Shown here: positions 11,263-61,878 of the stretch, in pieces | Layout: the number at the start of each line of letters is the position of its first letter | Numbering within the stretch: the stretch's first letter is position 1 | DNA from: Alphaproteobacteria bacterium | GTDB taxonomy: Bacteria; Pseudomonadota; Alphaproteobacteria; Bin95 | DNA length: 64,000 nucleotides | Direction of reading: 5' to 3' | Assembly (NCBI GenBank): GCA_965205265.1 | Contig: CBDBGH010000003.1 | Coordinates: forward strand, 2,208,001 to 2,272,000 | Position numbers and translations under genes: made by a program | Notes under the pieces: model-generated | Seen by the model: the letters and a program-made list of their open reading frames with translations, nothing else | What the model was told of the DNA's origin: nothing | Database searches by the model: none

Positions 11263-13674
11263 ATGGCCCCCCTCCCCTCCCACGCCTCCATCGTCATCGT
11301 CGGCGGCGGCATTGTCGGGCTGAGCCTCGCCTACCACCTGGCGAAGGCCGGGCGCGACGGCATATTGCTGCTGGAACGCAAGCAGTTCACCTGCGGCACC
11401 ACCTGGCACGCGGCGGGCCTTGTGCGCTCCGCCGCGCCGCATCCGACGCTGGCCGCCATCCTCGCCGATTCGTCGCGGCTCTACGCCGAACTGGAGGCCG
11501 AGACCGGCCAGACCACCGGCTACCGGCGGACGGGCTCGATCTACACCGCCGGCAATGCAGAGCGCTGGGAGGAGCTCAAGCGCTCGGCAGCAAGCGCGCG
11601 GGCCTATGGCGCCGAGATCGAATTCTGCACGCCGGCGGACCTGAAGCGCCTCTGGCCGCTCCTGCATGTCGATGACCTGATCGGCGGCAGCTTCTATGCC
11701 GGCGACGGCCAGACCAACCCGGCGGACACCGCCGCTGCGCTCGCCAGGGGCGCGCGGCAGGCCGGCGCCGTGCTGCTGGAGAATGTGAAGGTCACGGGCA
11801 TCCGTGCGGCAGGCGGGCGCATCACCGGCGTCGAGACCGAGGCCGGGCCGGTCGCGACGGAGTGCGTCGCCAACTGCGCCGGCATGTGGGCGCGCGAGGT
11901 CGGCCTGATGGCCGGAACGCCCGTGCCGCTCCACGCGGCGGAGCATTTCTACATCGTCACCGAGCCGATGGAGGGCGTCGAGGCCGGCCTTCCGGTCATG
12001 CGCGACCAGGACAGTTCCGCCTACTACAAGGAAGACGCCGGCAAGCTGCTCGTCGGCGCGTTCGAGCCGGTGGCGAAGCCCTGGGGCATGGACGGCATCC
12101 CGGAGGATTTCTGCTTCGACCAGCTACCCGACGACTGGGACCATTTCGAGCCGATACTGGAAGGCGCGCTGCACCGCGTGCCGGCACTGAGGGAGACGGG
12201 CATACGCCTCTTCTTCAACGGCCCGGAGAGCTTCACCCCGGACCAGGCGTTCCATCTGGGCCCCGCCGGCAATGTCGAGGGCTTCTGGATCGCGGCCGGT
12301 TTCAATTCCATCGGCATCCAGGCGGCGGGCGGCGTCGGCCAGCGGCTCGCGGCCTGGATCGAGGACGGCGCGCCGCCCTGCGACCTCTCGGCCTTCGACC
12401 CGCGCCGGATGCAGCCCTTCCAGAACGGCAGGACCTACCTCAAGGCGCGCGTCAGCGAGGCGCTGGGCCTCCTCTACGCCATGCACTGGCCCTACCGGCA
12501 ATTCGAGACGGCGCGCGGCGAGCGGCGGTCCCCGGTGCATGGCGCGCTGGCGGAAGCGGGCGCCTGCTTCGGCGAGGTCGCCGGCTGGGAGCGCGCCAAC
12601 TGGTTCGCGCGGCCGGGCGAAGAGCCCGTCTATGAATACAGCTACGGACGGCAGAACTGGTTCGGGGCGAGCGCCGCCGAGCACCGGAGCGTCCGCGAGG
12701 AAGCCGGCGTGTTCGACCTCACCTCCTTCGGCAAGATCCTGGTCGAGGGGCCGGACGCCGAGGCGCTGCTGCAATGGGTCTCGGCCAACGACATGAGCCG
12801 CCCGCCCGGAAGCGTGGTCTACACCCAATGGCTGAATGCGGCGGCCGGCATAGAGGCGGACCTGACCGTCACCCGGCTCGACGAGGCCCGCTACATGGTG
12901 GTGACGGCCGCGGCCGCCGCAGCGCGGGACCTGGCCCGGCTCCGCATGGAGGCTCGCGACCGGCGCGTGGACCTGGCGGACATAACGGACGAGCTGGCCG
13001 TGTTCGCCGTCATGGGGCCGAAGTCGCGCGCCCTGCTCGCGCCGCTGACATCGGCCGACCTTTCGGACAATGCCTTCCCGTTCGGAACCTCGCGGGAGAT
13101 CGAGCTGGCGGGCGCGCCGCTCAGGGCGTCGCGCATCAGCTATGTCGGCGAGCTCGGCTGGGAGCTGTATGTGCCCTGGAGCGAGGCGAGAGGGGTGTTC
13201 GCGGCGCTGCGGGACGCAGGCGCTGCGCCCGTCGGGATGCACGCGCTGGACAGCCTGCGCATCGAGAAGGCCTACCGCCACTGGGGCCACGACATCGCGC
13301 CTTCGGACAACCCGGTCGAGGCCGGCCTCGCCTTCGCCGTGAAGCCCGACGCCAAGGACTTCCTCGGCCGCGAGGCCTATCTCCGCGCGCGCGACGCCGG
13401 CCCTTCGCGCCGCCTGATGCAGTTCCGCCTGCTCGACCCCGAACCGCTGCTCTACGGCCATGAGCCGATCCTGGCGGACGGGCGCATGGTCGATACGCTG
13501 ACCTCCGCCAATTACGGGCACGCGCTGGGCGGGGCCGTAGGCCTCGGCTATGTGCCGGTGCAGGCGCTCGATGCCGGCGCATTCGCGATAAATGTGGCGG
13601 GCGTGGCCGTTCCGGCCGAGGCTTCGCTCAGGCCGCTCTACGACCCGGGGAACCGCAGGATGCGGGGTGTCTGA
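11263..13674 (+). CDS. GcvT-family FAD-dependent oxidoreductase (sarcosine/dimethylglycine dehydrogenase-like)
   Basis: GGGIVG, GTTWHAAG, NGPESFTPD, GWERANWF, SYVGELGWEL, LRIEKAY. Confidence 0.9.
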   Translation: MAPLPSHASIVIVGGGIVGLSLAYHLAKAGRDGILLLERKQFTCGTTWHAAGLVRSAAPHPTLAAILADSSRLYAELEAETGQTTGYRRTGSIYTAGNAERWEELKRSAASARAYGAEIEFCTPADLKRLWPLLHVDDLIGGSFYAGDGQTNPADTAAALARGARQAGAVLLENVKVTGIRAAGGRITGVETEAGPVATECVANCAGMWAREVGLMAGTPVPLHAAEHFYIVTEPMEGVEAGLPVMRDQDSSAYYKEDAGKLLVGAFEPVAKPWGMDGIPEDFCFDQLPDDWDHFEPILEGALHRVPALRETGIRLFFNGPESFTPDQAFHLGPAGNVEGFWIAAGFNSIGIQAAGGVGQRLAAWIEDGAPPCDLSAFDPRRMQPFQNGRTYLKARVSEALGLLYAMHWPYRQFETARGERRSPVHGALAEAGACFGEVAGWERANWFARPGEEPVYEYSYGRQNWFGASAAEHRSVREEAGVFDLTSFGKILVEGPDAEALLQWVSANDMSRPPGSVVYTQWLNAAAGIEADLTVTRLDEARYMVVTAAAAAARDLARLRMEARDRRVDLADITDELAVFAVMGPKSRALLAPLTSADLSDNAFPFGTSREIELAGAPLRASRISYVGELGWELYVPWSEARGVFAALRDAGAAPVGMHALDSLRIEKAYRHWGHDIAPSDNPVEAGLAFAVKPDAKDFLGREAYLRARDAGPSRRLMQFRLLDPEPLLYGHEPILADGRMVDTLTSANYGHALGGAVGLGYVPVQALDAGAFAINVAGVAVPAEASLRPLYDPGNRRMRGV

Positions 13675-13834
13675 CGGATCCGGCTTCCGGCAATCGTCGA
13701 AATCACGAGCTCCGGAACCGCGGAAAGCCCCAGTCCCCACAGTTTCCGGATCAGCTTCCCGATATGCCATTCGCGCATAAATGTTATCCGATTATGCACT
13801 TACCTTTCCGATTCCATGCTTCTAGAGACTATTT
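13674..13834. repeat. 161-bp target duplication, left copy (IS1634 copy 1)
   Basis: Identical to 18547-18707. Confidence 0.95.
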
Positions 13835-15514
13835 CCTGACTTCGACGGTTGATTCGCATAAGTAGTTGATATTGCCTGGTTCTCATTTCGGCTAGGCACT
13901 ACATCCGGCATTTCTTCGAGCCGTGCTTCGTCGACGGTCAGGCGAGTTGATACGGGGTGATCGTCAGGGGCAGCCCCATGGTTGCGTAAATCTGCTCCGC
14001 CGCCGGTGTCGGCTTCGAGGGGATGACGTAGCGGTTGCCCGATTGCCGACAGCGCAGCAGGGAGCACTGGCGGTGGACGAGGGCGGAGCGGATGACCTCC
14101 GGGGACATCCGCCGCTTCTGGATGGCGACGCGGTACGCAAGGTGTCGAACGCAGGCGAAGGCCAGGAAGGCGATGGCGATGTGAGCGCGGATCCGGTCCG
14201 GGTTCCAGTGCCAGATGGGACGTATCTTCAGGTCGTGTTTGGTGATCCGGAAGCTCTCCTCGACCTGCCAGAGCCCCTGGTAGTGAGCCATCACTTCGGT
14301 GACGCGCGCGTCGCGCAGATTGGTGATGACGCCGGTGAGCCCGTCCCATCGTGCGGCCTCGGCGATCTTCTCCGGGTTCACCGTGAGCCGTGCGTCGCCC
14401 TCGACGGCGATGAAGCGCTTCGCCCCGTGATTGGAGAGCAGTTCCCTGGGATTGTCGCTGCGGGCCAGCCTGTCGAGCAGGCGTTCCACCTGATGGCGGC
14501 GCTCGTGCGCGTCCTTGCGTGCGCGCTGGGGGCAGAAGACGACGATCAGGCGACGGCCCTTGTACTCCCACTCGCCGACCCGGCGGTCCTGTGAGCCCTC
14601 CAGCGGGGCATAGGTCCCGGGGTCGAGAACCTGCCCCAGCAGCGCGAGCGGCAGCTTGCGCAGCCGCGCGCCGACGACATACTCGCCGCCGATGGCGTCC
14701 ATGGCGTCGAGGTTGTCGGCGCTCAGCATGCCCCGGTCGGCCACGCATACCGTGCGCTCCACCTGGTGGCGGCGCTGCATGTCCTGCAGGACCGGGACCA
14801 TGCTGTGTCCCTCGTAGGTGGCGCCGGGGAAGACCTCGTAGCTGATCGGCAGCCCTTCGCGCGTCACCATCAGCGCCAGCAGAACCTGCGAGTCCTTGTG
14901 TTTGCCGTCCTTGCTGAAGCCGTGCTGGCGAAGCTCGTCCTCGGCGGCCGTCTCGAAGTAGAGCGTGGTGCAATCGAAGAAGAGGATCGCGACCGGCTCC
15001 GGCAGCAGCGACCGGCTCGCCTCGCCGACGCGCGTGCGCAGTCGCTCGATCACCGTCGCGTCGAGCTGATCCATCATCCGGTAGACCTTCTCGAGCGGAA
15101 GACTCACGCCGAAGTCCTCCTCGAGCCGGCGCACGCTGCCCCGCTTGCTGTCGGGGTTGGCTACCCGCGCCATCACCACATGGAACAGCGCGTCATGGGA
15201 GGCCCGGTAGCGCGAGCGCGGCAGCAGCGCGTCGAGGCCCAGCAGCCGGTAGATATAGCGCGACAATCTGGGTGAGAGCCGCGCGTCAATCAGGATGAGA
15301 TTCCCCGGCGGCATCGGCGAGTTGATGATTGTCGCGCGGGGCGCGGATTGCAAGCGGTTTCGGATTTTGATTGTCGCGGCGCGACAAACAGGGTTTTCGG
15401 AGAGCGTTTTGATTGTCGCGGGGGGGCCGTCGGGTCGGAGAAGAGACGGCCCGCGGAGGCGATTCCCGCGGGCTGTGAGTGTTGTGGCCGCTGGGCCGAT
15501 CTGGCGGCAGCGGT

Positions 15515-17862
<2,348 letters not shown>

Positions 17863-17930
17863 CTACTCGGAAAAACGTCACCGTTCGCCCAGCCGACCGA
17901 CCCCGCCAGAAGGTCCAGGAAAAATTTTTG

Positions 17931-17989
17931 AGGCGGCGGCCCGGAACTCCGGTCGGGCTACGCCCTCCCTCCGTTCCGGGCCGCCGCCT
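17931..17989. repeat. 17-bp-stem hairpin in the istA leader
   Basis: aggcggcggcccggaac ... gttccgggccgccgcct. Confidence 0.8.
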
Positions 17990-18546
17990 TCCCCCGTCTC
18001 ATCCTGATTGTCGCCAGCGTCTCAAGCTGATTGTCGCGCCGCAGGTAGATCTCGCCATAGACCTCGTGGATGCCTGTGATCAGGCGCTGCTCCTCTTCAA
18101 GCTGCTTGAGGTCGACCGGGAGTTCCTCCTTGCCGTCCCCCCGGCGGCCGACACGGATCGCCTGCTCAGCGATCTTCTCGGGCGCAAACAATGCCGGCTG
18201 ACGCTCGTCCTCCAGCTTCGCCTTGACGTACTCGCCGAGCTGCCTCAGGCGCTCGAGCTCGTCCTCGTCCATGGCCACGCCGACATGGCGGACGATGCGC
18301 TGTCGGACCTTGCCGCCGTCGCGCACGGCCTCGACGATCTGGACCGAGCGTCGCGGGCTGTTGGGGGAGGTCTTGATGCGCACGAACATGGGGGGAGTGT
18401 AGCGCGTGGCGGAGGCATTGACAGTCTCAAAGATTTACTAGGCACTACAACGCAGCTTGACCGCACCGCAACTGCCAACTCATTGGCTTTACTGAAAACT
18501 CCAGACGCGAGATCGGTCAGAAGTCAGCCCAACCGTCGAAGTCAGG

Positions 18547-18707
18547 ACGGATCCGGCTTCCGGCAATCGTCGAAATCACGAGCTCCGGAACCGCGGAAAG
18601 CCCCAGTCCCCACAGTTTCCGGATCAGCTTCCCGATATGCCATTCGCGCATAAATGTTATCCGATTATGCACTTACCTTTCCGATTCCATGCTTCTAGAG
18701 ACTATTT
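18547..18707. repeat. 161-bp target duplication, right copy (IS1634 copy 1)
   Basis: Identical to 13674-13834. Confidence 0.95.
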
Positions 18708-18802
18708 CTTGCGGTGAAGGAGGAGACTTCGCGTGCGGCGATGCTTGGGCAACCGGGCCTTGCCGGCAGGCAAATCGACACGGTTGTACCGGGACTGAAC
18801 CC

Positions 18803-19075
18803 ATGAAAAAATCGGATGTTGTCGGCCGGGTTGCCGACAGGACGGGTTTGAGCAGGGGCACGGCGGAAGAGGCGGTCAATGCCATGCTGGCTGCGATAGG
18901 AGAAGCGCTGGCCCGCGGCGAAGCCGTGCGCATATCGGGCTTCGGCAGGTTCTCCGTAAGGACCCGGCCGGCCCATACCGGGCGCAATCCGGGCACTGGC
19001 GAACCGATTCGGGTCGGCGTCTCGAAAACACCGCTCTTCAAGGCCGGCAAGCGTCTCAAGGAGGTTGTGAACTAA
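18803..19075 (+). CDS. HU/IHF-family DNA-binding protein
   Basis: MKKSDVV, ISGFGRF, GRNPGTGE, FKAGKRLKEVVN. Confidence 0.92.
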   Translation: MKKSDVVGRVADRTGLSRGTAEEAVNAMLAAIGEALARGEAVRISGFGRFSVRTRPAHTGRNPGTGEPIRVGVSKTPLFKAGKRLKEVVN

Positions 19076-19186
19076 TGGGTTCCCGGCGGCCGGGCCTTTC
19101 GGAGCCCCAGGGACGGAACCCGGAGCCGCCCCCGTCCCGCCGGCTTGCCTTGACCGCCGGCCCGGCCGTGCTATCCAGCGGCGGCG

Positions 19187-31765: not shown

Positions 31766-31811
31766 ATACGTTCGCGACAGAATCCTTCGGCAAACCCGTC
31801 ATTCCCGCGGT
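31766..31811. repeat. 46-bp target duplication of IS1634 copy 2 (second copy at 33728-33773)
   Basis: atacgttcgcgacagaatccttcggcaaacccgtcattcccgcggt on both sides. Confidence 0.95.
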
Positions 31812-31968
31812 CCTGACTTCGACGGTTGGGCTGACTTCTGACCGATCTCGCGTCTGGAGTTTTCAGTAAAGCCAATGAGTTGGCAGTTGCGGTGCGGTCA
31901 AGCTGCGTTGTAGTGCCTAGTAAATCTTTGAGACTGTCAATGCCTCCGCCACGCGCTACACTCCCCCC

Positions 31969-33624
31969 ATGTTCGTGCGCATCAAGACCTCCCCCAACAG
32001 CCCGCGACGCTCGGTCCAGATCGTCGAGGCCGTGCGCGACGGCGGCAAGGTCCGACAGCGCATCGTCCGCCATGTCGGCGTGGCCATGGACGAGGACGAG
32101 CTCGAGCGCCTGAGGCAGCTCGGCGAGTACGTCAAGGCGAAGCTGGAGGACGAGCGTCAGCCGGCATTGTTTGCGCCCGAGAAGATCGCTGAGCAGGCGA
32201 TCCGTGTCGGCCGCCGGGGGGACGGCAAGGAGGAACTCCCGGTCGACCTCAAGCAGCTTGAAGAGGAGCAGCGCCTGATCACAGGCATCCACGAGGTCTA
32301 TGGCGAGATCTACCGGCTGCTGGGCCTCGACGCGCTGCTGCCGCGCTCGCGCTACCGGGCCTCCCATGACGCGCTGTTCCATGTGGTGATGGCGCGGGTA
32401 GCCAACCCCGACAGCAAGCGGGGCAGCGTGCGCCGGCTCGAGGAGGACTTCGGCGTGAGTCTTCCGCTCGAGAAGGTCTACCGGATGATGGATCAGCTCG
32501 ACGCGACGGTGATCGAGCGACTGCGCACGCGCGTCGGCGAGGCGAGCCGGTCGCTGCTGCCGGAGCCGGTCGCGATCCTCTTCTTCGATTGCACCACGCT
32601 CTACTTCGAGACGGCCGCCGAGGACGAGCTTCGCCAGCACGGCTTCAGCAAGGACGGCAAACACAAGGACTCGCAGGTTCTGCTGGCGCTGATGGTGACG
32701 CGCGAAGGGCTGCCGATCAGCTACGAGGTCTTCCCCGGCGCCACCTACGAGGGACACAGCATGGTCCCGGTCCTGCAGGACATGCAGCGCCGCCACCAGG
32801 TGGAGCGCACGGTATGCGTGGCCGACCGGGGCATGCTGAGCGCCGACAACCTCGACGCCATGGACGCCATCGGCGGCGAGTATGTCGTCGGCGCGCGGCT
32901 GCGCAAGCTGCCGCTCGCGCTGCTGGGGCAGGTTCTCGACCCCGGGACCTATGCCCCGCTGGAGGGCTCACAGGACCGCCGGGTCGGCGAGTGGGAGTAC
33001 AAGGGCCGTCGCCTGATCGTCGTCTTCTGCCCCCAGCGCGCACGCAAGGACGCGCACGAGCGCCGCCATCAGGTGGAACGCCTGCTCGACAGGCTGGCCC
33101 GCAGCGACAATCCCAGGGAACTGCTCTCCAATCACGGGGCGAAGCGCTTCATCGCCGTCGAGGGCGACGCACGGCTCACGGTGAACCCGGAGAAGATCGC
33201 CGAGGCCGCACGATGGGACGGGCTCACCGGCGTCATCACCAATCTGCGCGACGCGCGCGTCACCGAAGTGATGGCTCACTACCAGGGGCTCTGGCAGGTC
33301 GAGGAGAGCTTCCGGATCACCAAACACGACCTGAAGATACGTCCCATCTGGCACTGGAACCCGGACCGGATCCGCGCTCACATCGCCATCGCCTTCCTGG
33401 CCTTCGCCTGCGTTCGACACCTTGCGTACCGCGTCGCCATCCAGAAGCGGCGGATGTCCCCGGAGGTCATCCGCTCCGCCCTCGTCCACCGCCAGTGCTC
33501 CCTGCTGCGCTGTCGGCAATCGGGCAACCGCTACGTCATCCCCTCGAAGCCGACACCGGCGGCGGAGCAGATTTACGCAACCATGGGGCTGCCCCTGACG
33601 ATCACCCCGTATCAACTCGCCTGA
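31969..33624 (+). CDS. IS1634-family DDE transposase, 551 aa
   Basis: FFDCTTLYFE, GFSKDGK, VADRGM, WQVEESFRITK, IRPIWHW..RIRAHI. Confidence 0.93.
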   Translation: MFVRIKTSPNSPRRSVQIVEAVRDGGKVRQRIVRHVGVAMDEDELERLRQLGEYVKAKLEDERQPALFAPEKIAEQAIRVGRRGDGKEELPVDLKQLEEEQRLITGIHEVYGEIYRLLGLDALLPRSRYRASHDALFHVVMARVANPDSKRGSVRRLEEDFGVSLPLEKVYRMMDQLDATVIERLRTRVGEASRSLLPEPVAILFFDCTTLYFETAAEDELRQHGFSKDGKHKDSQVLLALMVTREGLPISYEVFPGATYEGHSMVPVLQDMQRRHQVERTVCVADRGMLSADNLDAMDAIGGEYVVGARLRKLPLALLGQVLDPGTYAPLEGSQDRRVGEWEYKGRRLIVVFCPQRARKDAHERRHQVERLLDRLARSDNPRELLSNHGAKRFIAVEGDARLTVNPEKIAEAARWDGLTGVITNLRDARVTEVMAHYQGLWQVEESFRITKHDLKIRPIWHWNPDRIRAHIAIAFLAFACVRHLAYRVAIQKRRMSPEVIRSALVHRQCSLLRCRQSGNRYVIPSKPTPAAEQIYATMGLPLTITPYQLA

Positions 33625-33690
33625 CCGTCGACGAAGCACGGCTCGAAGAAATGCCGGATGTAGTGCCTAGCCGAAATGAGAACCAGGCAA

Positions 33691-33703
33691 TATCAACTAC
33701 TTA
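33691..33703 (+). promoter_or_regulatory. IHF consensus site in the IS1634 downstream end (present in all four copies)
   Basis: TATCAACTACTTA fully matches WATCAANNNNTTR. Confidence 0.6.
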
Positions 33704-33742
33704 TGCGAATCAACCGTCGAAGTCAGGATACGTTCGCGACAG

Positions 33743-33793
33743 AATCCTTCGGCAAACCCGTCATTCCCGCGGTCAACAGCACGTTCCCCGGCG
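33743..33793. repeat. 51-bp target duplication of IS1634 copy 3 (second copy at 35710-35760)
   Basis: aatccttcggc...ttccccggcg on both sides. Confidence 0.95.
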
Positions 33794-35709
33794 CCTGACT
33801 TCGACGGTTGGGCTGACTTCTGACCGATCTCGCGTCTGGAGTTTTCAGTAAAGCCAATGAGTTGGCAGTTGCGGTGCGGTCAAGCTGCGTTGTAGTGCCT
33901 AGTAAATCTTTGAGACTGTCAATGCCTCCGCCACGCGCTACACTCCCCCCATGTTCGTGCGCATCAAGACCTCCCCCAACAGCCCGCGACGCTCGGTCCA
34001 GATCGTCGAGGCCGTGCGCGACGGCGGCAAGGTCCGACAGCGCATCGTCCGCCATGTCGGCGTGGCCATGGACGAGGACGAGCTCGAGCGCCTGAGGCAG
34101 CTCGGCGAGTACGTCAAGGCGAAGCTGGAGGACGAGCGTCAGCCGGCATTGTTTGCGCCCGAGAAGATCGCTGAGCAGGCGATCCGTGTCGGCCGCCGGG
34201 GGGACGGCAAGGAGGAACTCCCGGTCGACCTCAAGCAGCTTGAAGAGGAGCAGCGCCTGATCACAGGCATCCACGAGGTCTATGGCGAGATCTACCGGCT
34301 GCTGGGCCTCGACGCGCTGCTGCCGCGCTCGCGCTACCGGGCCTCCCATGACGCGCTGTTCCATGTGGTGATGGCGCGGGTAGCCAACCCCGACAGCAAG
34401 CGGGGCAGCGTGCGCCGGCTCGAGGAGGACTTCGGCGTGAGTCTTCCGCTCGAGAAGGTCTACCGGATGATGGATCAGCTCGACGCGACGGTGATCGAGC
34501 GACTGCGCACGCGCGTCGGCGAGGCGAGCCGGTCGCTGCTGCCGGAGCCGGTCGCGATCCTCTTCTTCGATTGCACCACGCTCTACTTCGAGACGGCCGC
34601 CGAGGACGAGCTTCGCCAGCACGGCTTCAGCAAGGACGGCAAACACAAGGACTCGCAGGTTCTGCTGGCGCTGATGGTGACGCGCGAAGGGCTGCCGATC
34701 AGCTACGAGGTCTTCCCCGGCGCCACCTACGAGGGACACAGCATGGTCCCGGTCCTGCAGGACATGCAGCGCCGCCACCAGGTGGAGCGCACGGTATGCG
34801 TGGCCGACCGGGGCATGCTGAGCGCCGACAACCTCGACGCCATGGACGCCATCGGCGGCGAGTATGTCGTCGGCGCGCGGCTGCGCAAGCTGCCGCTCGC
34901 GCTGCTGGGGCAGGTTCTCGACCCCGGGACCTATGCCCCGCTGGAGGGCTCACAGGACCGCCGGGTCGGCGAGTGGGAGTACAAGGGCCGTCGCCTGATC
35001 GTCGTCTTCTGCCCCCAGCGCGCACGCAAGGACGCGCACGAGCGCCGCCATCAGGTGGAACGCCTGCTCGACAGGCTGGCCCGCAGCGACAATCCCAGGG
35101 AACTGCTCTCCAATCACGGGGCGAAGCGCTTCATCGCCGTCGAGGGCGACGCACGGCTCACGGTGAACCCGGAGAAGATCGCCGAGGCCGCACGATGGGA
35201 CGGGCTCACCGGCGTCATCACCAATCTGCGCGACGCGCGCGTCACCGAAGTGATGGCTCACTACCAGGGGCTCTGGCAGGTCGAGGAGAGCTTCCGGATC
35301 ACCAAACACGACCTGAAGATACGTCCCATCTGGCACTGGAACCCGGACCGGATCCGCGCTCACATCGCCATCGCCTTCCTGGCCTTCGCCTGCGTTCGAC
35401 ACCTTGCGTACCGCGTCGCCATCCAGAAGCGGCGGATGTCCCCGGAGGTCATCCGCTCCGCCCTCGTCCACCGCCAGTGCTCCCTGCTGCGCTGTCGGCA
35501 ATCGGGCAACCGCTACGTCATCCCCTCGAAGCCGACACCGGCGGCGGAGCAGATTTACGCAACCATGGGGCTGCCCCTGACGATCACCCCGTATCAACTC
35601 GCCTGACCGTCGACGAAGCACGGCTCGAAGAAATGCCGGATGTAGTGCCTAGCCGAAATGAGAACCAGGCAATATCAACTACTTATGCGAATCAACCGTC
35701 GAAGTCAGG
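33794..35709 (+). mobile_element. IS1634-family element copy 3 (1916 bp)
   Basis: Same IRs and ORF as copy 2; 51-bp DR. Confidence 0.95.
33951..35606 (+). CDS. IS1634-family transposase, 551 aa
   Basis: Translation identical to copy 2. Confidence 0.93.
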   Translation: MFVRIKTSPNSPRRSVQIVEAVRDGGKVRQRIVRHVGVAMDEDELERLRQLGEYVKAKLEDERQPALFAPEKIAEQAIRVGRRGDGKEELPVDLKQLEEEQRLITGIHEVYGEIYRLLGLDALLPRSRYRASHDALFHVVMARVANPDSKRGSVRRLEEDFGVSLPLEKVYRMMDQLDATVIERLRTRVGEASRSLLPEPVAILFFDCTTLYFETAAEDELRQHGFSKDGKHKDSQVLLALMVTREGLPISYEVFPGATYEGHSMVPVLQDMQRRHQVERTVCVADRGMLSADNLDAMDAIGGEYVVGARLRKLPLALLGQVLDPGTYAPLEGSQDRRVGEWEYKGRRLIVVFCPQRARKDAHERRHQVERLLDRLARSDNPRELLSNHGAKRFIAVEGDARLTVNPEKIAEAARWDGLTGVITNLRDARVTEVMAHYQGLWQVEESFRITKHDLKIRPIWHWNPDRIRAHIAIAFLAFACVRHLAYRVAIQKRRMSPEVIRSALVHRQCSLLRCRQSGNRYVIPSKPTPAAEQIYATMGLPLTITPYQLA

Positions 35710-35922
35710 AATCCTTCGGCAAACCCGTCATTCCCGCGGTCAACAGCACGTTCCCCGGCGCGTCGGCCCACCGCAGATTGCTTGTGAGCGGCACGCAGAC
35801 TGCCGTGGCCAGCCGGCTTCGATTCAGGGCATCCCCCTGGACGATGACGACCGGCCGCCGGAATCCCGGTCCCGAACCTGCGGGCTCAGGCAATTCGGCC
35901 CAGCACACGTCACCCTGGGAGA

Positions 35923-52584: not shown

Positions 52585-52598
52585 CTTCGAGCTCCTTT

Positions 52599-52630: not shown

Positions 52631-52650
52631 GCAAATCGACTGGAATAATT

Positions 52651-53598: not shown

Positions 53599-54447
53599 AT
53601 GAAGCTCGGCATTTTCAGCTACAACACGGAATACGGGACCCGGCCCGACGAGCTGGCGAAGGCCGCCGAGGAGCGGGGCTTCGAATCCCTCTGGGTCGGC
53701 GAGCACACCCACATTCCGGCGAGCCGCGAGACGCCCTATCCGGGCGGCGATCCCCTGCCGAAACCCTACTACCACATGGCCGACCCGTTCGTGTCGCTGA
53801 TGGCGGCGGCAGGCGCGACCTCCACCATCAAGGTCGGCACGGCCGTCTGCCTCGTCATCGAGCGCGACCCCATCGTGCTGGCGAAGGAGGCGGCGACGCT
53901 CGACTACCTCTCGGGCGGGCGCCTGCTGCTCGGCATAGGCGGCGGCTGGAACCGGGAGGAGATGGCCAATCACGGCACCGACTTCGCGCGCCGCTGGCAG
54001 GTGCTGCGGGAGCGCGTCGAGGCGATGAAGGCGATCTGGACGGAAGAGGAGGCGAGCTATGAAGGCGAGTTCGTCCGCTTCGAGCGCATCGTCTCCTATC
54101 CGAAGCCCGTCCAGCAGCCGCATCCGCCGGTCATCTATGGCGGCGCCACACCGCTCGGGCTGAAGCGCACCGTGCGCTATTGCGACGGCTGGATGCCGAT
54201 CGACGTGCTGCTGGCCGACTTCCCCGCCGCCGTCGCCGAGCTCGACCGGCAGGCCGAGGAAGCCGGGCGCGACCCGGCGTCCATCTCCGTCTCGGTTTTC
54301 GCCTTCAACGGCGCCAATGAGGAGGCGCTCAGGCGGCTCGCGGAGAACCCGCGCATCGAACGCGCCGTGCTGGTGGCGCCCCGCTACACGGAGAAGGCGC
54401 TGCCGTTCCTCGACGCGTTCGGCGCGCTCATCCCCGCATTGGCCTGA
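53599..54447 (+). CDS. LLM-class (F420-dependent-type) oxidoreductase
   Basis: GFESLWVGEHTH, DPFVSL, LSGGRLLLGIGGGWN.EE, PKPVQ. Confidence 0.88.
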   Translation: MKLGIFSYNTEYGTRPDELAKAAEERGFESLWVGEHTHIPASRETPYPGGDPLPKPYYHMADPFVSLMAAAGATSTIKVGTAVCLVIERDPIVLAKEAATLDYLSGGRLLLGIGGGWNREEMANHGTDFARRWQVLRERVEAMKAIWTEEEASYEGEFVRFERIVSYPKPVQQPHPPVIYGGATPLGLKRTVRYCDGWMPIDVLLADFPAAVAELDRQAEEAGRDPASISVSVFAFNGANEEALRRLAENPRIERAVLVAPRYTEKALPFLDAFGALIPALA

Positions 54448-56071
54448 GGCCGGCCGCGAGCTCGCGCAGGCGGTATTTCTGGATCTTCCCGGACGCCGTG
54501 CGCGGCATGGCGTCGATCAATTCCAAGCGTTCCGGCAGGTAAGGCTTCGCCAGCCGGCGCTCCAGCAGGAAGCCGCACATCGCCTCGAAGGTCAGCGCGT
54601 CCGCCTCCGGGTGGAGCGTGACGAAGGCGCAGGCGCGCTCGCCCAGGCGCTCGTCCGGCATGGCGACGATGGCGCAGTCCGCCACGCCCGGATGGCGGTA
54701 AAGCAGCTCCTCCACCTCGACCACGGGAATGTTCTCGCCGCCACGGATGATGATGTCCTTCGACCGTCCGGAGATCCGGATATAGCCGTCGGCGTCCATC
54801 CGGGCGTTGTCCCCGGTCTCGAACCAGCCGTCCTCGTCGGTGTCATAGCGCTCCGGGCGCTTCAGGTAGCCGACGAACTGGCCCGCGCCGCGCACCTGCA
54901 GGCGCCCTTCCTCCTCGTCCGGAACCGGCAATCCGTCCTCCCCGACCACGCGCACTTCCAGGCAGGAAACCGCGCATCCGTCCGTGCCGAACACGCGCTC
55001 CGGCGGGTCCGATTTCCGCGTGCCCGAGCCGAAGCCGTTCTCGGTCATGCCCCAGCCGGAATGGACGAAGCAGCCGAGGCGCTCGCTCGCCCGCTCCACC
55101 AGCACGCGCGGGATCGGCGCGCCGGCGGAGACGAAGGTTTCCAGCGTCGAGATGTCGTAGCGGTCCAGCACCGGGCTGTTCGTGAGATCGGCCAGGAAGG
55201 GCGTCGCCCCCATGGTGAAGGTCACCGCCTCGTCCCGGATCAGCCTCAGTGCCGCCTCCGGGTCCCAGATGTCGAGATAGCAGGTCTTGGCGCCGAGCAC
55301 GGGCGAGAGAATAAGGCCGTACATGAAGCCCGTCTGGTGGGCGAGCGGCGAGCCCATCAGGATCGCCGTGTCCTCGCCGAGCCCGATGCGCTCCACATAG
55401 CTCATCACCATGGCGAGCAGCGTGTTGGAGGTGTGCATCACGCCTTTGGGCTCGCCGGTCGTGCCGGAGGTGTAGAGAAGCTGGATCACCTCGTCCGGCT
55501 CCGGCCTGCCGGCCGCGAACACCGCTCCGGCGTCCACGTCCCGCTCCAGCCCGGGGTCCAGCAGCGCCGCCTCGAAATTGTCGCCGATGACGAACAGGTG
55601 CTCCAGCTTCGGCAGGGACGGGCAGAGCTCCCGCGCCATCGCCGCATGGTCGTGCCCCCGGAAGACGCCCGGCGTCACCAGCGCCTTCGCGTCCGCGAAA
55701 TCGAGCATGAAGGAGAGCTCGCGCTCGCGGAAGATCGGCATCAGCGGATTGGAGCAGACGCCGAGGCGCAGGCAGGCGATATGCAGGCAGTAGAACTGCC
55801 ACCAGTTGGGAAGCTGGAAGGCGAGCACATCCCCGCGCCCGAGCCCGTGCGCATGGAGGCCGAGCGCCATCCTGTCGGACAGCCGCCTGAGCTGGCGCCA
55901 GGAGAGGGTCGTCTCGCCGCCGTCCCCCACCCGCCGGGCGACCACCGCGACGGCGTCCGGCTTGCGCGCGACCGCCTCGTCGAAATAGTCGAGCAGGGTG
56001 CGGTCGCGCCAGTGGCCTTCCGCGCGGTGCGTCTCGCCCCTCCAGACGGGCAGGATCGGATCGAAGATCAT
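54428..56071 (-). CDS. AMP-dependent acyl-CoA ligase (cyclohexanecarboxylate-CoA ligase-like)
   Basis: YTSGTTGEPKG, WGMTE, TGD, RGGENI, SGKIQK. Confidence 0.88.
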   Translation of the reverse strand: MIFDPILPVWRGETHRAEGHWRDRTLLDYFDEAVARKPDAVAVVARRVGDGGETTLSWRQLRRLSDRMALGLHAHGLGRGDVLAFQLPNWWQFYCLHIACLRLGVCSNPLMPIFRERELSFMLDFADAKALVTPGVFRGHDHAAMARELCPSLPKLEHLFVIGDNFEAALLDPGLERDVDAGAVFAAGRPEPDEVIQLLYTSGTTGEPKGVMHTSNTLLAMVMSYVERIGLGEDTAILMGSPLAHQTGFMYGLILSPVLGAKTCYLDIWDPEAALRLIRDEAVTFTMGATPFLADLTNSPVLDRYDISTLETFVSAGAPIPRVLVERASERLGCFVHSGWGMTENGFGSGTRKSDPPERVFGTDGCAVSCLEVRVVGEDGLPVPDEEEGRLQVRGAGQFVGYLKRPERYDTDEDGWFETGDNARMDADGYIRISGRSKDIIIRGGENIPVVEVEELLYRHPGVADCAIVAMPDERLGERACAFVTLHPEADALTFEAMCGFLLERRLAKPYLPERLELIDAMPRTASGKIQKYRLRELAAGLRPMRG

Positions 56072-56184
56072 CGGCGCTCCCCGATAGCCGTGAATGGCAT
56101 CCTTCGCATCGTCGAATCCTTCCCCGAATGCCGGGCCGCTCGCTTGACCCGCCGGCGCGGAGCGGCTAGAAGCCGCCCCTTGTC

Positions 56185-56260
<76 letters not shown>

Positions 56261-56288
56261 TTCCCTTCCCCGCTGTCGACCCGCCCTG

Positions 56289-56600
56289 TCAGGCGTCCGT
56301 CAGCACGTGGATCGTCCGGCTGGCGAGCAGGTCCTTCACCTTCGCCGCATAGGCGGCCATATGGGCGGACGCGCCATGCGCGCGGAGCGCCTCCAGGCTC
56401 GCCCATTTCTCCACCACGACGAAGGTGTCCTCGCCGTATTTCGTCTGGATCGCGCCCGCTTCGGCGTCCACGGCCGCGCCGTATTCGATGCAGCCGTCCT
56501 CCGCATGCACCGCCGGCACATTGGCGTTGAAGGCTTCCAGCACCTCGGCGCGGCAGCCGGGCTTGGCCTGGATGACGGCGATGACATGGACCCTGGACAT
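56289..56600 (-). CDS. Antibiotic biosynthesis monooxygenase (ABM)-domain protein
   Basis: AEDGCIEY, VVEKWASLEAL.AH..HM. Confidence 0.85.
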   Translation of the reverse strand: MSRVHVIAVIQAKPGCRAEVLEAFNANVPAVHAEDGCIEYGAAVDAEAGAIQTKYGEDTFVVVEKWASLEALRAHGASAHMAAYAAKVKDLLASRTIHVLTDA

Positions 56601-56715
56601 TCGTCTTCTCCTCTCTCCGCCGCCCTCGCGGCAACGGTCGTCGGGGCGTTATTGACCGCTTTCGGCCGCCGGGGTCAAGATTGGGACAGTTCCCGGTTCC
56701 CGGAGGCCATGTCCG

Positions 56716-58860
56716 ATGCCCGAAGCGCGCGCCCTCTGCTCTTCCTGCGACATCTACTGCCAGGTCACGGTCGAGACCGCAGGCGGAGAGGTCGCCCGGG
56801 TCAAGGCGATCGACCCGAGGCCGGGCCGGGCCAATATCTGCATGAAGGGCGTGCATGCGCCCGCCGGCTTCGCCCATCCCGACCGGGTGCTGCATCCGCT
56901 CCGCCGCAAGGGGCCGCGCGGGTCCGGGGAATGGGAACGGGTCGGCTGGGACGAGGCGCTGGACGACATCGCCGAACGCCTTCACCGGGTCGTGGACCGC
57001 TACGGGCCGGAAGGGTTCGCGGTCTCGACGAGCTCCTGGAACACGCAGACCGACCAGGGCATGTGCCGGCGCTTCATGAACCTTGTCGGCTCGCCGAACT
57101 GGATTTCCGGCGTGGCGCTCTGCGCCGGCAATACGGCCGCCGTCAACCGGCTGGTCTATGGCTGGTTCCCCTATCCGGATTTCACGAAAACGAACTGCAT
57201 CGTGCTCTTCGGGCACAACCCGAAGCCGCATTCCTGGACGCCGGAATACAACGCCATCCGCCGCGCGCAGGAACGCGGGGCCAGGCTGATCGTGCTGGAC
57301 CCGCGCCGGTCGGAAAACGCCGGGCTTGCCGACATCTGGCTGCCGCTCAAGGTCGGCACCGACGCCGCCATGTGTTTCGGCTGGCTCAAGGTCATCATGG
57401 ACGAGGGCCTCTGGGACCGGGATTTCGTCAGGCGCTGGACGGCGGGGTTCGACGAGCTCCGGGCGCGCGTGGACGAGTTTCCGCTGGACCGGGTCGCGGA
57501 GATCACCGGCGTCGCGCCGGACCGGATCGCCGAGGCCGCGCGGCTCTATGCACAGTCAGGCCCGGCGGTCATCCCCTGGTCGCCGATCACCGACCAGCAG
57601 CGCAACTCGACCTCCGCCATCCGCCTGCAGGCGATCCTGCGCGCGATCTGCGGCAATCTCGACGTGCCGGGCGGCGAGGTGCTGCACGGCTTCCACCCGC
57701 GCATCGTGCCGGAGACGGACCTGGAGTTTCACGACGCGCTGCCCGAGGCGCAGAAGGCGAAGCAGCTCGGGTCCGATACGCACCCCGTTTTCACCTATCG
57801 CGGCGCGGCGCCGCTCGAAGAGCCGACCTTGCGCGTCTGGGGCCGGCGCTACGCCAACATCGTGTCGGGCTGCTACATGGCCACGCCCTCGGCCGTGTTC
57901 CGCGCCATGGCGGACGGCGAGCCCTATCCGGTCAAGGCCTTCTTCGCGCTCGGCAACAACACGCTGCTGAGCTTCGCCAACATGCAGCTGATTCACAGGG
58001 CGCTGCTGAACCAGGACCTGCTCGTCGCCTTCGAGCACATGAAGACGCCGACGGCCGCGCTCTCGGACTACATCCTGCCGGGCGATGCCTGGACGGAGCG
58101 CAAGGCGCTGGCGGACGGCTTCGGCTGGACCGCCATCTGCCGCACGTCGCAGCAGGCCGTCGAGCCGCCCGGCGAAGCGCGCAGCGTTTACGATTTCTGG
58201 CGCGGCCTCGCAGTCCGGTTCGGCCTCGGCAATCATTTCCCGTGGGAGACGGCCGACGCCCTGCTGGACCACCGCGTCGCGGGCCTCGGCATGGATTTCG
58301 ACAGCTTCGCCCGGGAGCACGCCGCGCATACGGACGGCCTGCGGTTCCGGAAATACGAACGGACGGGTTTCGCGACGCCTTCCGGCAAGGTCGAGCTTTC
58401 CTCCTCTGTGCTCGCCGGGTTCGGCTTCGACCCCCTGCCCTACTGGCGCGAGGAGCCGGCGGGACCGGAGGACATGCCGCTTCGCCTCTTCACGGGGCTA
58501 CGCGAGGACGCCTATTTCCAGACCGGCCACCGCCATATCGCGGCGCTCAGGGCGCGCGCGCCCGAGCCGCTGCTGTTCCTGCATCCCGAGGATGCGATGG
58601 AGGCCGGCATCGCCGACGGCGAGCCCGCGGTCGCCCGGACGGCTCAGGGGCAGGTCCGCATGAAGGCGGCGGTTCGCGACGACATGCAGAAGGGCCTGGT
58701 GCGGATACCGCATGGCTGGTGGCTGCCGGAAGTCGGGCTGGAGAGCGCCTGGGAGATGGCCGACGCCCAGCTCTGCCCCGACGACGAGGACTTCCTCGAC
58801 CGCGAACAGGGCATCCCCCACTTCAAGGGCATCCCCTGCCGGGTCGCGCCGGCGGCTTAG
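56716..58860 (+). CDS. Mo/W-bis-PGD enzyme, acetylene hydratase-like
   Basis: CSSCDIYC..CMKG 4Fe-4S motif; RRFMNLVGSPNW..LCAGNT; no Tat signal. Confidence 0.85.
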   Translation: MPEARALCSSCDIYCQVTVETAGGEVARVKAIDPRPGRANICMKGVHAPAGFAHPDRVLHPLRRKGPRGSGEWERVGWDEALDDIAERLHRVVDRYGPEGFAVSTSSWNTQTDQGMCRRFMNLVGSPNWISGVALCAGNTAAVNRLVYGWFPYPDFTKTNCIVLFGHNPKPHSWTPEYNAIRRAQERGARLIVLDPRRSENAGLADIWLPLKVGTDAAMCFGWLKVIMDEGLWDRDFVRRWTAGFDELRARVDEFPLDRVAEITGVAPDRIAEAARLYAQSGPAVIPWSPITDQQRNSTSAIRLQAILRAICGNLDVPGGEVLHGFHPRIVPETDLEFHDALPEAQKAKQLGSDTHPVFTYRGAAPLEEPTLRVWGRRYANIVSGCYMATPSAVFRAMADGEPYPVKAFFALGNNTLLSFANMQLIHRALLNQDLLVAFEHMKTPTAALSDYILPGDAWTERKALADGFGWTAICRTSQQAVEPPGEARSVYDFWRGLAVRFGLGNHFPWETADALLDHRVAGLGMDFDSFAREHAAHTDGLRFRKYERTGFATPSGKVELSSSVLAGFGFDPLPYWREEPAGPEDMPLRLFTGLREDAYFQTGHRHIAALRARAPEPLLFLHPEDAMEAGIADGEPAVARTAQGQVRMKAAVRDDMQKGLVRIPHGWWLPEVGLESAWEMADAQLCPDDEDFLDREQGIPHFKGIPCRVAPAA

Positions 58861-58961
58861 GGCGCGGTCCGCTTCGGGCCAACCGACGGTCGTTCGGCGG
58901 GCGGCCGCCCGTCGCCCGTTTCGGGCCGAGGCGGCGCGGCAGAGCGGCAGGGTCCCCTGCG

Positions 58962-59034
58962 ATGTGTCATGCGATGTCATGTTCTGTCATGCAGCGCGCT
59001 GCACCTTCCCCGCAATGTGTCATGCGATGTCATG
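58962..59034. repeat. 20-bp direct repeat built from 10-bp-phased TGTCATG units
   Basis: atgtgtcatgcgatgtcatg at 58962 and 59015. Confidence 0.85.
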
Positions 59035-59219
59035 ATCTGCATGCGCAGGTCTTATGTCCTGTCGCCGTTTCGAGCATGAGGTTCATCCTTCCCTGCCCCC
59101 CTTCCGTCGCCTGCGAAGGAGAGCCTGCCCCGGACCACGATCCGGGGGTCGGGGCGGGAGGCTGTCTTTCGTCCTGCCAGGGCCTTGCCAAGCCGCACAG
59201 CCGCCGGGCCCTCTCCCGG

Positions 59220-59241
59220 CCTCTCCCGCGAGCGGGAGAGG
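59220..59241. repeat. REP-like palindrome
   Basis: cctctcccgc-ga-gcgggagagg. Confidence 0.7.
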
Positions 59242-59723
59242 GGATTTGCGGCGGCAAACCCTTCCTTCCGAAGCTCCGTCCCCCTGCATCCTGAATATCG
59301 TTCCGTCATCCCGTTTCGTTCCATTCTGTTCCGTCCGCCCCGCCGCCGGCCGGGCCGTGCAGCGGGACCCTAATTCGCGCGTATCCTGCGCGGGCGCCCG
59401 CGCCCGTGGGCGCACGTTTCGCGGCGGCGCGGTTCGCGCGCCCGATTGCCCGCGTGCGCATGCGCGCACGGGCCGAACGCAGGGTGCACCTCGCCCGTCT
59501 GTTTCTAGGGCATTTTTTCGCGCCGGCGCCGACGCGGGAGACGGCGCAACCTCCAGATCACTCCGCCCGACCCAATATAGCTTATGATTCCTATATATCA
59601 ATTTATACTAAGAAATATTTCTAATTTCTTACGAACAAATATTTCTTTCGATCCTGTCACTGTGCGGACAGTCCGTTAAGCCGGGTCGAATCCCGCCCCG
59701 AGTACAGAACCCCCTTTTGATAG

Positions 59724-59830
59724 AGTTACATTCCCATCCGAGCCCGAAATCGCCGCCCCGGCCCGCGAGCCGGGTCCATCCACAACTGTTTCGGTCCGGT
59801 GGAAAGGCCGGGAGATGGACCCCGGATCGT
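59724..59830. repeat. 107-bp target duplication of IS1634 copy 4 (second copy at 61747-61853)
   Basis: agttacattccc...ccccggatcgt on both sides. Confidence 0.95.
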
Positions 59831-61746
59831 CCTGACTTCGACGGTTGATTCGCATAAGTAGTTGATATTGCCTGGTTCTCATTTCGGCTAGGCACTACAT
59901 CCGGCATTTCTTCGAGCCGTGCTTCGTCGACGGTCAGGCGAGTTGATACGGGGTGATCGTCAGGGGCAGCCCCATGGTTGCGTAAATCTGCTCCGCCGCC
60001 GGTGTCGGCTTCGAGGGGATGACGTAGCGGTTGCCCGATTGCCGACAGCGCAGCAGGGAGCACTGGCGGTGGACGAGGGCGGAGCGGATGACCTCCGGGG
60101 ACATCCGCCGCTTCTGGATGGCGACGCGGTACGCAAGGTGTCGAACGCAGGCGAAGGCCAGGAAGGCGATGGCGATGTGAGCGCGGATCCGGTCCGGGTT
60201 CCAGTGCCAGATGGGACGTATCTTCAGGTCGTGTTTGGTGATCCGGAAGCTCTCCTCGACCTGCCAGAGCCCCTGGTAGTGAGCCATCACTTCGGTGACG
60301 CGCGCGTCGCGCAGATTGGTGATGACGCCGGTGAGCCCGTCCCATCGTGCGGCCTCGGCGATCTTCTCCGGGTTCACCGTGAGCCGTGCGTCGCCCTCGA
60401 CGGCGATGAAGCGCTTCGCCCCGTGATTGGAGAGCAGTTCCCTGGGATTGTCGCTGCGGGCCAGCCTGTCGAGCAGGCGTTCCACCTGATGGCGGCGCTC
60501 GTGCGCGTCCTTGCGTGCGCGCTGGGGGCAGAAGACGACGATCAGGCGACGGCCCTTGTACTCCCACTCGCCGACCCGGCGGTCCTGTGAGCCCTCCAGC
60601 GGGGCATAGGTCCCGGGGTCGAGAACCTGCCCCAGCAGCGCGAGCGGCAGCTTGCGCAGCCGCGCGCCGACGACATACTCGCCGCCGATGGCGTCCATGG
60701 CGTCGAGGTTGTCGGCGCTCAGCATGCCCCGGTCGGCCACGCATACCGTGCGCTCCACCTGGTGGCGGCGCTGCATGTCCTGCAGGACCGGGACCATGCT
60801 GTGTCCCTCGTAGGTGGCGCCGGGGAAGACCTCGTAGCTGATCGGCAGCCCTTCGCGCGTCACCATCAGCGCCAGCAGAACCTGCGAGTCCTTGTGTTTG
60901 CCGTCCTTGCTGAAGCCGTGCTGGCGAAGCTCGTCCTCGGCGGCCGTCTCGAAGTAGAGCGTGGTGCAATCGAAGAAGAGGATCGCGACCGGCTCCGGCA
61001 GCAGCGACCGGCTCGCCTCGCCGACGCGCGTGCGCAGTCGCTCGATCACCGTCGCGTCGAGCTGATCCATCATCCGGTAGACCTTCTCGAGCGGAAGACT
61101 CACGCCGAAGTCCTCCTCGAGCCGGCGCACGCTGCCCCGCTTGCTGTCGGGGTTGGCTACCCGCGCCATCACCACATGGAACAGCGCGTCATGGGAGGCC
61201 CGGTAGCGCGAGCGCGGCAGCAGCGCGTCGAGGCCCAGCAGCCGGTAGATCTCGCCATAGACCTCGTGGATGCCTGTGATCAGGCGCTGCTCCTCTTCAA
61301 GCTGCTTGAGGTCGACCGGGAGTTCCTCCTTGCCGTCCCCCCGGCGGCCGACACGGATCGCCTGCTCAGCGATCTTCTCGGGCGCAAACAATGCCGGCTG
61401 ACGCTCGTCCTCCAGCTTCGCCTTGACGTACTCGCCGAGCTGCCTCAGGCGCTCGAGCTCGTCCTCGTCCATGGCCACGCCGACATGGCGGACGATGCGC
61501 TGTCGGACCTTGCCGCCGTCGCGCACGGCCTCGACGATCTGGACCGAGCGTCGCGGGCTGTTGGGGGAGGTCTTGATGCGCACGAACATGGGGGGAGTGT
61601 AGCGCGTGGCGGAGGCATTGACAGTCTCAAAGATTTACTAGGCACTACAACGCAGCTTGACCGCACCGCAACTGCCAACTCATTGGCTTTACTGAAAACT
61701 CCAGACGCGAGATCGGTCAGAAGTCAGCCCAACCGTCGAAGTCAGG
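59831..61746 (-). mobile_element. IS1634-family element copy 4 (1916 bp)
   Basis: Same IRs and ORF as the other copies; 107-bp DR. Confidence 0.95.
59934..61589 (-). CDS. IS1634-family transposase, 551 aa
   Basis: Translation identical to copies 2 and 3. Confidence 0.93.
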   Translation of the reverse strand: MFVRIKTSPNSPRRSVQIVEAVRDGGKVRQRIVRHVGVAMDEDELERLRQLGEYVKAKLEDERQPALFAPEKIAEQAIRVGRRGDGKEELPVDLKQLEEEQRLITGIHEVYGEIYRLLGLDALLPRSRYRASHDALFHVVMARVANPDSKRGSVRRLEEDFGVSLPLEKVYRMMDQLDATVIERLRTRVGEASRSLLPEPVAILFFDCTTLYFETAAEDELRQHGFSKDGKHKDSQVLLALMVTREGLPISYEVFPGATYEGHSMVPVLQDMQRRHQVERTVCVADRGMLSADNLDAMDAIGGEYVVGARLRKLPLALLGQVLDPGTYAPLEGSQDRRVGEWEYKGRRLIVVFCPQRARKDAHERRHQVERLLDRLARSDNPRELLSNHGAKRFIAVEGDARLTVNPEKIAEAARWDGLTGVITNLRDARVTEVMAHYQGLWQVEESFRITKHDLKIRPIWHWNPDRIRAHIAIAFLAFACVRHLAYRVAIQKRRMSPEVIRSALVHRQCSLLRCRQSGNRYVIPSKPTPAAEQIYATMGLPLTITPYQLA

Positions 61747-61773
61747 AGTTACATTCCCATCCGAGCCCGAAAT

Positions 61774-61878
61774 CGCCGCCCCGGCCCGCGAGCCGGGTCC
61801 ATCCACAACTGTTTCGGTCCGGTGGAAAGGCCGGGAGATGGACCCCGGATCGTCACTGGCGTGCCGTCCGGGGTGACG
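61774..61878. repeat. REP-like bipartite palindrome downstream of prfB
   Basis: cccggc..gccggg and accccgga..tccggggt hairpins; related to 5809-5921. Confidence 0.65.

Follow-up and report, generated by a model that had tools for sequence, protein, structure and literature searches.

How can one insertion sequence (IS) leave target duplications of 161, 46, 51 and 107 bp within a single short stretch of chromosome, and what does such latitude say of the reaction that makes them? The question is raised by a 64 000-bp stretch of an alphaproteobacterial genome (GenBank assembly GCA_965205265.1; positions 2208001–2272000 of C3, the chromosome contig of a three-contig assembly), which we call the window and in which self-comparison reveals a 1916-bp element four times, with starts at 13835, 31812, 33794 and 59831 (copies A to D; five-digit coordinates are those of the window, seven-digit ones those of C3). 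We find that the element is an active IS1634-family IS with a single Tn5-like DDE transposase, and that the exact repeats flanking it are true target-site duplications made at insertion, the empty-site evidence covering the four window copies. Sequence comparison establishes the family, the burst in which the element multiplied, the origin of the duplications at insertion, a symmetric preference at the joints and an unphased law for the spacing between them; as the best explanation we consider it probable that the repeats left by this IS1634-family burst arise from two uncoupled strand transfers followed by long fill-in.

In the window, copies B (31812–33727, plus strand; transposase gene 31969–33624, plus), C (33794–35709, plus; 33951–35606, plus) and D (59831–61746, minus; 59934–61589, minus) are intact, show no base difference over 1916 bp and encode one shared protein of 551 aa, copy B being the reverse complement of copy D with the same translation. 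Copy A spans 13835–18546 on the minus strand and lies in two parts that both match copy D (13835–15253, element positions 1–1419, at 100 %, and 18044–18546), with no mismatch when the halves are joined; its transposase gene is split at about codon 114, after element position 1419, by a 2790-bp IS21-family element (15254–18043, minus) flanked by a 6-bp duplication, GGTAGA. The genes of this intruder encode an IstA transposase (istA, 16351–17850; NF033546, 200 bits against a cutoff of 160) and an IstB helper ATPase (istB, 15515–16354; NF038214, 282 bits against a cutoff of 200). An earlier reading of the window (hereafter the sequence-only reading) had described four 1916-bp copies with identical inverted repeats and transposases; the four copies, a perfect 17-bp inverted repeat and the identity of B, C and D are borne out, whereas copy A is interrupted and the intact transposase genes number three.

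Each copy lies between exact direct repeats, of 161 bp for A (13674–13834 and 18547–18707), 46 bp for B (31766–31811 and 33728–33773), 51 bp for C (33743–33793 and 35710–35760) and 107 bp for D (59724–59830 and 61747–61853). Copies B and C share one orientation and are separated by 66 bp, so that their repeats overlap over 31 bp of one target, the final 31 bp of the right repeat of B doubling as the start of the left repeat of C, an arrangement that fits either order of insertion. The exactness and the differing lengths given in the sequence-only reading thus stand, but its description of the repeats as unrelated in sequence has to be amended for the 31 bp that B and C share.

Were the repeats made on insertion, or did they exist beforehand, or come about when an ordinary insertion that had left a short duplication was later rearranged? 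The site of copy A is uninterrupted in the related genomes G014, G005 and G007, where it is as long as a single repeat copy (the 161-bp sequence is single in L009, L010 and L011); the B/C region is one continuous copy in G014 and G007, with one continuous copy at the uninterrupted site also in L014 and L015; and the site of copy D is uninterrupted in G014, where left flank plus repeat maps to 217–440 and repeat plus right flank to 334–567 (single copy in L004). The flanks of the window insertions are collinear with the relatives. Moreover, sequencing run X20, a different sample from the same study as X19 (the best holder of the sequence, which may be the source sample), contains a 528-bp contig that joins 59722 to 61746, skipping 2023 bases (1916 + 107), with 109 letters that fit either side and no mismatch. 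This contig is the empty allele of copy D at full identity. Its depth is 69.8, and in the comparison of X20 with window positions 59300–62300 depth is low over the occupied left junction region of copy D; both alleles might coexist in the X20 sample, contig depths being unable to separate them. Empty sites, which the sequence-only reading had proposed to seek in relatives, were therefore found for A, B/C and D, each with the repeat in single copy, and none already carried the duplication. Genome-wide, the repeat sequences are mutually unrelated and most occur exactly twice, and both boundaries of every repeat coincide with an element terminus and with the same target motif. Later events around the element do occur (a reciprocal exchange across about 310 kb, and an IS21-family element inside the repeat at 3854289, both described below), as repeats of prior or secondary origin would have it; but that origin is already contradicted for the four window copies, and we regard it as exceedingly improbable in general.

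A related worry, voiced in the sequence-only reading, is that a repeat-rich genome has been mis-joined at copies of the element. Sixty-three near-identical copies are hard to assemble, and the genome is flagged with 7.28 % contamination. Against this, the assembly consists of three contigs (5.46 Mb, 193 kb and 43 kb; 68 % G+C) without any N, the order of the flanks agrees with that in the relatives, the mismatch-free X20 contig skips exactly element plus repeat, and the same pattern recurs at 50 of 62 loci from independent assemblies of other organisms. Contigs of the element in X19 and X22 have depths of the order of 55–60 times those of the flanks. This agrees with the copy number but serves only as a rough check: contig depth does not measure copy number, X19 is possibly the source sample, and in X19, X20, X22 and X24 the unitigs end at the element ends, so that none extends across a junction with 31 letters on each side. 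We consider an assembly artefact next to negligible as an explanation.

All copies of the element in the genome are chromosomal. Fifty-five are full-length (53 identical to copy D, two with one mismatch) and eight are broken, five by IS21-family elements, one by a nested copy of the same element and two by truncation. Exact flanking repeats of 6–573 bp accompany 48 of the 55 full copies, and the outer repeats of six split copies measure 374, 215, 187, 161, 151 and 5 bp. In total, the genome-wide tabulation that the sequence-only reading had called for recovers 57 target duplications of 5–573 bp (median 143 bp, interquartile range 71–203 bp), all exact, the longest being 573, 568, 567, 528, 466, 455 and 454 bp; only two are 5–6 bp long and 52 are at least 33 bp. 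The earlier estimate that the two strand transfers occur up to about 160 bp apart had the right phenomenon but understated its scale, the spacing reaching 573 bp here and 1318 bp in relatives of the element.

Among 36 other genomes of the taxonomic family only three carry the element, as one or two diverged copies of 83–90 % identity; the single diverged full-length copies in G005 and G001 have no detectable flanking repeats and are uninformative. Because the copies are identical, the repeats exact and the element scarce elsewhere, and because an empty allele is present in the sister sample, the burst is recent and probably continuing, in line with the sequence-only reading. The copies are clustered only weakly along the chromosome (eight gaps below 5 kb against 4.7 expected, p 0.09).

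Seven full copies lack a repeat of their own, and for most of them a history can be read. Two of them (4892940–4894855 and 5202993–5204908) pair reciprocally, with repeats of 172 and 100 bp, which indicates an exchange across about 310 kb; as the two copies are inversely oriented, an inversion of that length by recombination between copies is indicated. The cumulative GC skew of the chromosome is irregular and its arms are unequal, as expected after inversions such as this one. A single 76-bp repeat is split between the copies at 4290172 and 2317705, and the repeat of the copy at 3854289 is interrupted by an IS21-family element. The 135 bp adjoining the copy at 3249125–3251040 recur 0.8 Mb away at 4043430–4043564, where no element adjoins them; another rearrangement has probably left this trace. 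For the seventh, at 4956424, no explanation emerged.

What do the joints themselves reveal? Each empty site was rebuilt and each joint viewed on the strand attacked, so that the 57 sites give 114 joints. At +1 the base is A in 45 of 57 joints of the end joined at the repeat start and in 42 of 57 at the far end (87/114, background 16 %); at −1 it is G in 38 and 36 of 57, respectively (74/114), and C in a further 32 of the 114; at −2 it is A or T in 44 and 40 of 57 (84/114, background 32 %); and position −3 is enriched for A. With a leave-one-out matrix, 51 % of the 114 joints score at least 3 bits, compared with 2.5 % of 200 000 random positions. Both joints therefore have one mirror-symmetric preference, 5′-W-(G/C)^A, and lie on opposite strands with a 5′ stagger. 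The same preference at both ends means that both joints come from the same reaction, and speaks against schemes where the transposase makes one junction and a host process the other. The targets are somewhat A+T-richer than the genome (repeats 63 % G+C, genome 68 %), and 29 of the 114 joints fall in coding-like frames as against 73 % of random positions. According to a crude coding classifier, 28 repeats lie wholly outside coding-like frames, 14 wholly inside and 15 across an edge, and each of these 15 retains one complete copy of a gene end. A cruciform or stem between the joints was considered and rejected (longest complementary run, mean 4.72 against 4.88 in shuffled pairings, p 0.93).

The spacing between the two joints is compatible with an exponential law of mean 179 bp (not rejected, Kolmogorov–Smirnov p 0.48). 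No helical phasing was detected in the 57 lengths (power at 10.5 bp 0.66; best period 14.0 bp, p 0.38, among periods of 5–40 bp), nor any periodicity in the combined set of 106 events that adds 49 from relatives (best period 12.7 bp, p 0.46). The simple rule that the second end takes the nearest good motif is often false, nearer and better-scoring sites being common; in the longest repeats, both sites tend to rank near the top of those within 650 bp. A hard upper limit near 573 bp, to which three values of 567–573 bp with none beyond them in this genome could point, is contradicted by repeats of 609–1318 bp in relatives.

These lengths bear directly on the idea that one compact transpososome captures a protein-bridged target loop, the two sites being bound together on a rigid face and the repeat length equalling the size of the loop. 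The mirror symmetry of the joints is what a complex of two-fold symmetry seated at the loop neck could give, and the lack of 15–32-bp repeats in this genome (considered below) could mark a minimum loop size. Rigid loops shorter than about 200 bp are expected to show phasing, as in repressor looping, but there is none in 57 or in 106 events; many repeats of 21–51 bp are too short for unassisted loops; and the length distribution declines steadily with no peak at a preferred loop size. We therefore think it unlikely that the spacing is set by looping of this kind.

Is the behaviour a property of this host or of the element? When one genome per species was scanned, 80 loci with relatives of the element came up, of which 62 were evaluated (12 had no second copy to define the ends and six no recognizable tips), with a flank scan that covered repeats up to about 1840 bp. 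Flanking repeats are present at 50 of the 62 loci (47 exact, three with 2–20 mismatches) and absent from 12. After one of the 50 was dropped for duplicating the target of another locus, 49 events of 21–1318 bp (median 175 bp) remained, the largest being 1318, 1309, 978, 751, 684 and 609 bp; the top three were rechecked and are exact and free of N (1309, 1318 and 978 bp at L057, L077 and L062, respectively, on public contigs of other Alphaproteobacteria). These related elements come from several alpha- and gammaproteobacterial assemblies, encode transposases 50–99 % identical to the present one and share the tip CC(T/C)GACTTCGA. The preference for A at +1 and G or C at −1 recurs both in the 90 % group (A at +1 in 31 of 40 joints) and in the 57 % group (20 of 26), and is less clear in the small 93 % group (6 A and 7 C among 14 joints). 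Since long repeats and the same joint preference are found in other hosts, long duplication is a trait of this clade of elements and not of the host.

The element ends in a perfect 17-bp inverted repeat, CCTGACTTCGACGGTTG, and contains one open frame of 551 aa. The transposase matches the NCBIfam IS1634-family model NF033559 with 341.3 bits (cutoff 100) over model positions 1–482 of 483, in agreement with the family named in the sequence-only reading, whereas the IS4 and IS701 models do not reach their cutoffs; Pfam PF01609 (DDE_Tnp_1) is present with an E value of 2.4e-14, and of more than 3000 database proteins at E ≤1e-10 those that are named are mostly IS1634 family transposases. In an alignment of 34 sequences (this transposase and 33 homologues of 54–90 % identity), D207, D286 and E445 are invariant and, by motif position, form the putative catalytic triad. 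The motif reads Y438-x2-L441-x3-E445-x6-K452, without the YREK arginine, an absence given as typical of the IS1634 family by De Palmenaer et al. (2008; PMC2266710); likewise, the length of 1916 bp and the ends CCTGACTT agree with the family values of 1500–2000 bp and terminal consensus C-----YT in a table of that source. An AlphaFold2 model of the transposase (predicted local distance difference test 80, predicted template modelling score 0.74) was compared with known structures by Foldseek, and the top five matches are chains of the Tn5 transposase (E 1.5e-6 to 9.4e-5; the best, 1muh_A in the Protein Data Bank (PDB), over 451 aligned columns). The C-terminus ends in ...MGLPLTITPYQLA, and a complete five-residue Q-L-x-L-F-like motif for binding the beta sliding clamp was not seen in the clade alignment.

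The Tn5/IS50 transposase (IS4 family; PDB 1MUH) thus shares the Pfam DDE core of this element and is its best structural match, with a sequence identity of 10–13 %. Tn5 makes a fixed 9-bp duplication with a rigid dimer that catalyses in trans; unlike Tn5, the present element has no fixed stagger. We suggest the following course of insertion. Each 3′ end of the element would make one transposase-catalysed strand transfer, the two falling on opposite target strands with a 5′ stagger, and each end would pick its own 5′-W-(G/C)^A site in place of the fixed distance of ordinary DDE elements. The distance between sites would be only loosely limited and approximately exponential; it averages about 180 bp in this genome and extends to 573 bp or more (to 1318 bp in relatives). 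The catalytic units may lack a fixed target geometry, being either flexibly linked or sequential, with the second end searching nearby DNA. In the intermediate the duplex between the two nicks would stay paired, and strand-displacing or replicative synthesis by the host from the two target 3′-OH ends could copy the segment on both sides of the element; as ordinary nick translation would meet a branch and not a free 5′ end, strand displacement or an assembled replisome would be needed. Binding to the beta clamp could hand the intermediate over to polymerases; this is only a lead, given that the complete clamp motif is not seen in this C-terminus.

Intramolecular replicative transposition of the Shapiro type gives inversion or deletion products. 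Nearly all copies of the present element carry both repeats around one element and are therefore simple insertions, not products of that kind. It has also to be asked whether the two ends might join different sister duplexes behind a replication fork, with recombination resolving the product to a duplication and the spacing reflecting the offset between sisters. Long strand displacement would thereby be avoided, and the transposases of the IS1634 family bind the beta sliding clamp (PMC4549789), a link to replication. However, the two orientations of the element are about equally frequent when set against the direction of replication read from GC skew (29 against 26, p 0.79), and a bias, for which we looked, is rejected; extra breaks and recombination would be needed, yet all 57 repeats are exact and precisely abut the element; and the clamp-binding motif is not evident at the C-terminus of this protein. 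Joining to sister duplexes is, in our judgement, highly improbable.

Returning to two uncoupled transfers and long fill-in, several observations weigh against this explanation. Members of the same family with 6-bp repeats (ISPfe2, the Acidiphilium element and ISGka5, see below) show that long repeats are not family-wide. That the two ends act independently, and by what route the product is repaired, are both inferences. Only surviving insertions are visible, and the depletion of joints in coding-like frames mixes motif preference with selection acting on the sample. No repeat of 15–32 bp occurs in this genome, which under the exponential has a P of about 0.005 in a post hoc test; such a gap would hint at two geometric classes and not one memoryless law. 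An empty class at these lengths is not established, repeats of 21 and 25 bp being found in relatives. Finally, orthologous uninterrupted sites for the 573-, 568- and 567-bp repeats were either not found in five relatives or gave dispersed-repeat matches only, these loci being non-conserved or repeat-rich, and the longest class (567–573 bp) accordingly depends on exactness, two-copy status and position. Beyond the uncoupled transfers themselves, we put forward tentatively, and with some doubt, the stronger proposal that the two ends integrate as independent single-end events with an unphased, memoryless spacing that ranges upwards from a few bases and passes 1.3 kb, made by a transpososome without fixed target geometry and finished by replication-like strand displacement.

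Long variable duplications of IS1634 and IS1549 have been known since the late 1990s, and the present case is thus not the first of its kind. IS1634 (from Mycoplasma mycoides subsp. mycoides SC) and IS1549 (from Mycobacterium smegmatis) resemble our element at the level of the family, to which it is placed by profile hidden Markov model and description and not by sequence identity; they share one large DDE transposase without the YREK arginine, widely differing repeat lengths and high copy number in one host. The host here, by contrast, has 68 % G+C, and the element is a different one. De Palmenaer et al. (2008; PMC2266710) give the usual duplications of the IS1634 family as 5–6 bp and A+T-rich, and those of IS1549 and IS1634 as 8–514 bp, and state that a mechanistic model had yet to be proposed, which agrees with the sequence-only reading that the phenomenon is known and its mechanism unexplained; the upper ends of our ranges, 5–573 bp here and 21–1318 bp in relatives, both exceed the maximum of 514 bp published there. 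Three members of the family are experimentally active and left 6-bp repeats in the few events reported, namely ISPfe2 of Paracoccus ferrooxidans (1884 bp), ISGka5 of Geobacillus kaustophilus and the IS1634-family element of Acidiphilium sp. PM (PMC4549789). They belong to the same family as the present element and are of similar size (ISPfe2, 1884 bp), whereas only two of 57 repeats of the present element are 5–6 bp long and 52 are at least 33 bp. According to Gómez et al. (2015; PMC4549789), IS1634-family transposases bind the beta sliding clamp and stronger binding leads to more transposition; the Acidiphilium transposase binds the clamp, while at the C-terminus of the present one a complete QLxLF-type motif is not visible. 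Later work on the mechanism, a target consensus or longer repeats was not found in the searchable literature, which misses most subscription journals; the long repeats treated in PMC6209633 are phage attachment sites and CRISPR (clustered regularly interspaced short palindromic repeat) repeats, and irrelevant here. The joint consensus, the law of spacing, the absence of phasing and the long repeats in relatives were likewise not found in that literature, and are therefore apparently new.

Some further repeats accompany the element. The 2790-bp IS21-family element is present in about 33 chromosomal copies, which fall into three subfamilies whose identities to the copy in the window are 100 %, about 97.8 % and about 90.8 %; the element lies inside five copies of the IS1634-family element, and two landings at the same element positions, 576–584, belong to different subfamilies. 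At C3:4596309–4600231 the IS1634-family element is nested in another copy of itself, with an inner 91-bp duplication of element sequence and an outer one of 215 bp. In the window, a dispersed repeat of about 250–300 bp just left of copy D (59259–59559) has 28 chromosomal matches of about 78–83 % identity and recurs dozens of times in every related genome from the genus; upstream of the target of copy D, two 32-nt direct repeats of 91 % identity lie 53 bp apart (58955–59039); and a 42-bp tandem repeat at 10086–10211 comprises two perfect units and a third that is 62 % identical.

What, then, does the locus mean for elements of this kind? The value of the data does not lie in a new phenomenon; rather, this genome and the relatives of the element give 106 events, a large data set that constrains a mechanism long open, and the element is evidently still moving, given the empty allele in the sister sample. 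The data narrow the models, in that the spacing is not set by a ruler, the helical repeat, cruciforms or replication direction, and they extend the known size range of duplications made by a transposase up to about 1.3 kb. In genome annotation such repeats are easily mistaken for segmental duplications, and the findings bear on how insertions spare or duplicate genes. If the two ends do integrate independently, insertions need not destroy genes (15 of the 57 repeats regenerate one complete gene end by the crude classifier), such sparing may explain how the genome tolerates 63 copies, and elements of this clade would act as natural duplicators of promoters and small genes.

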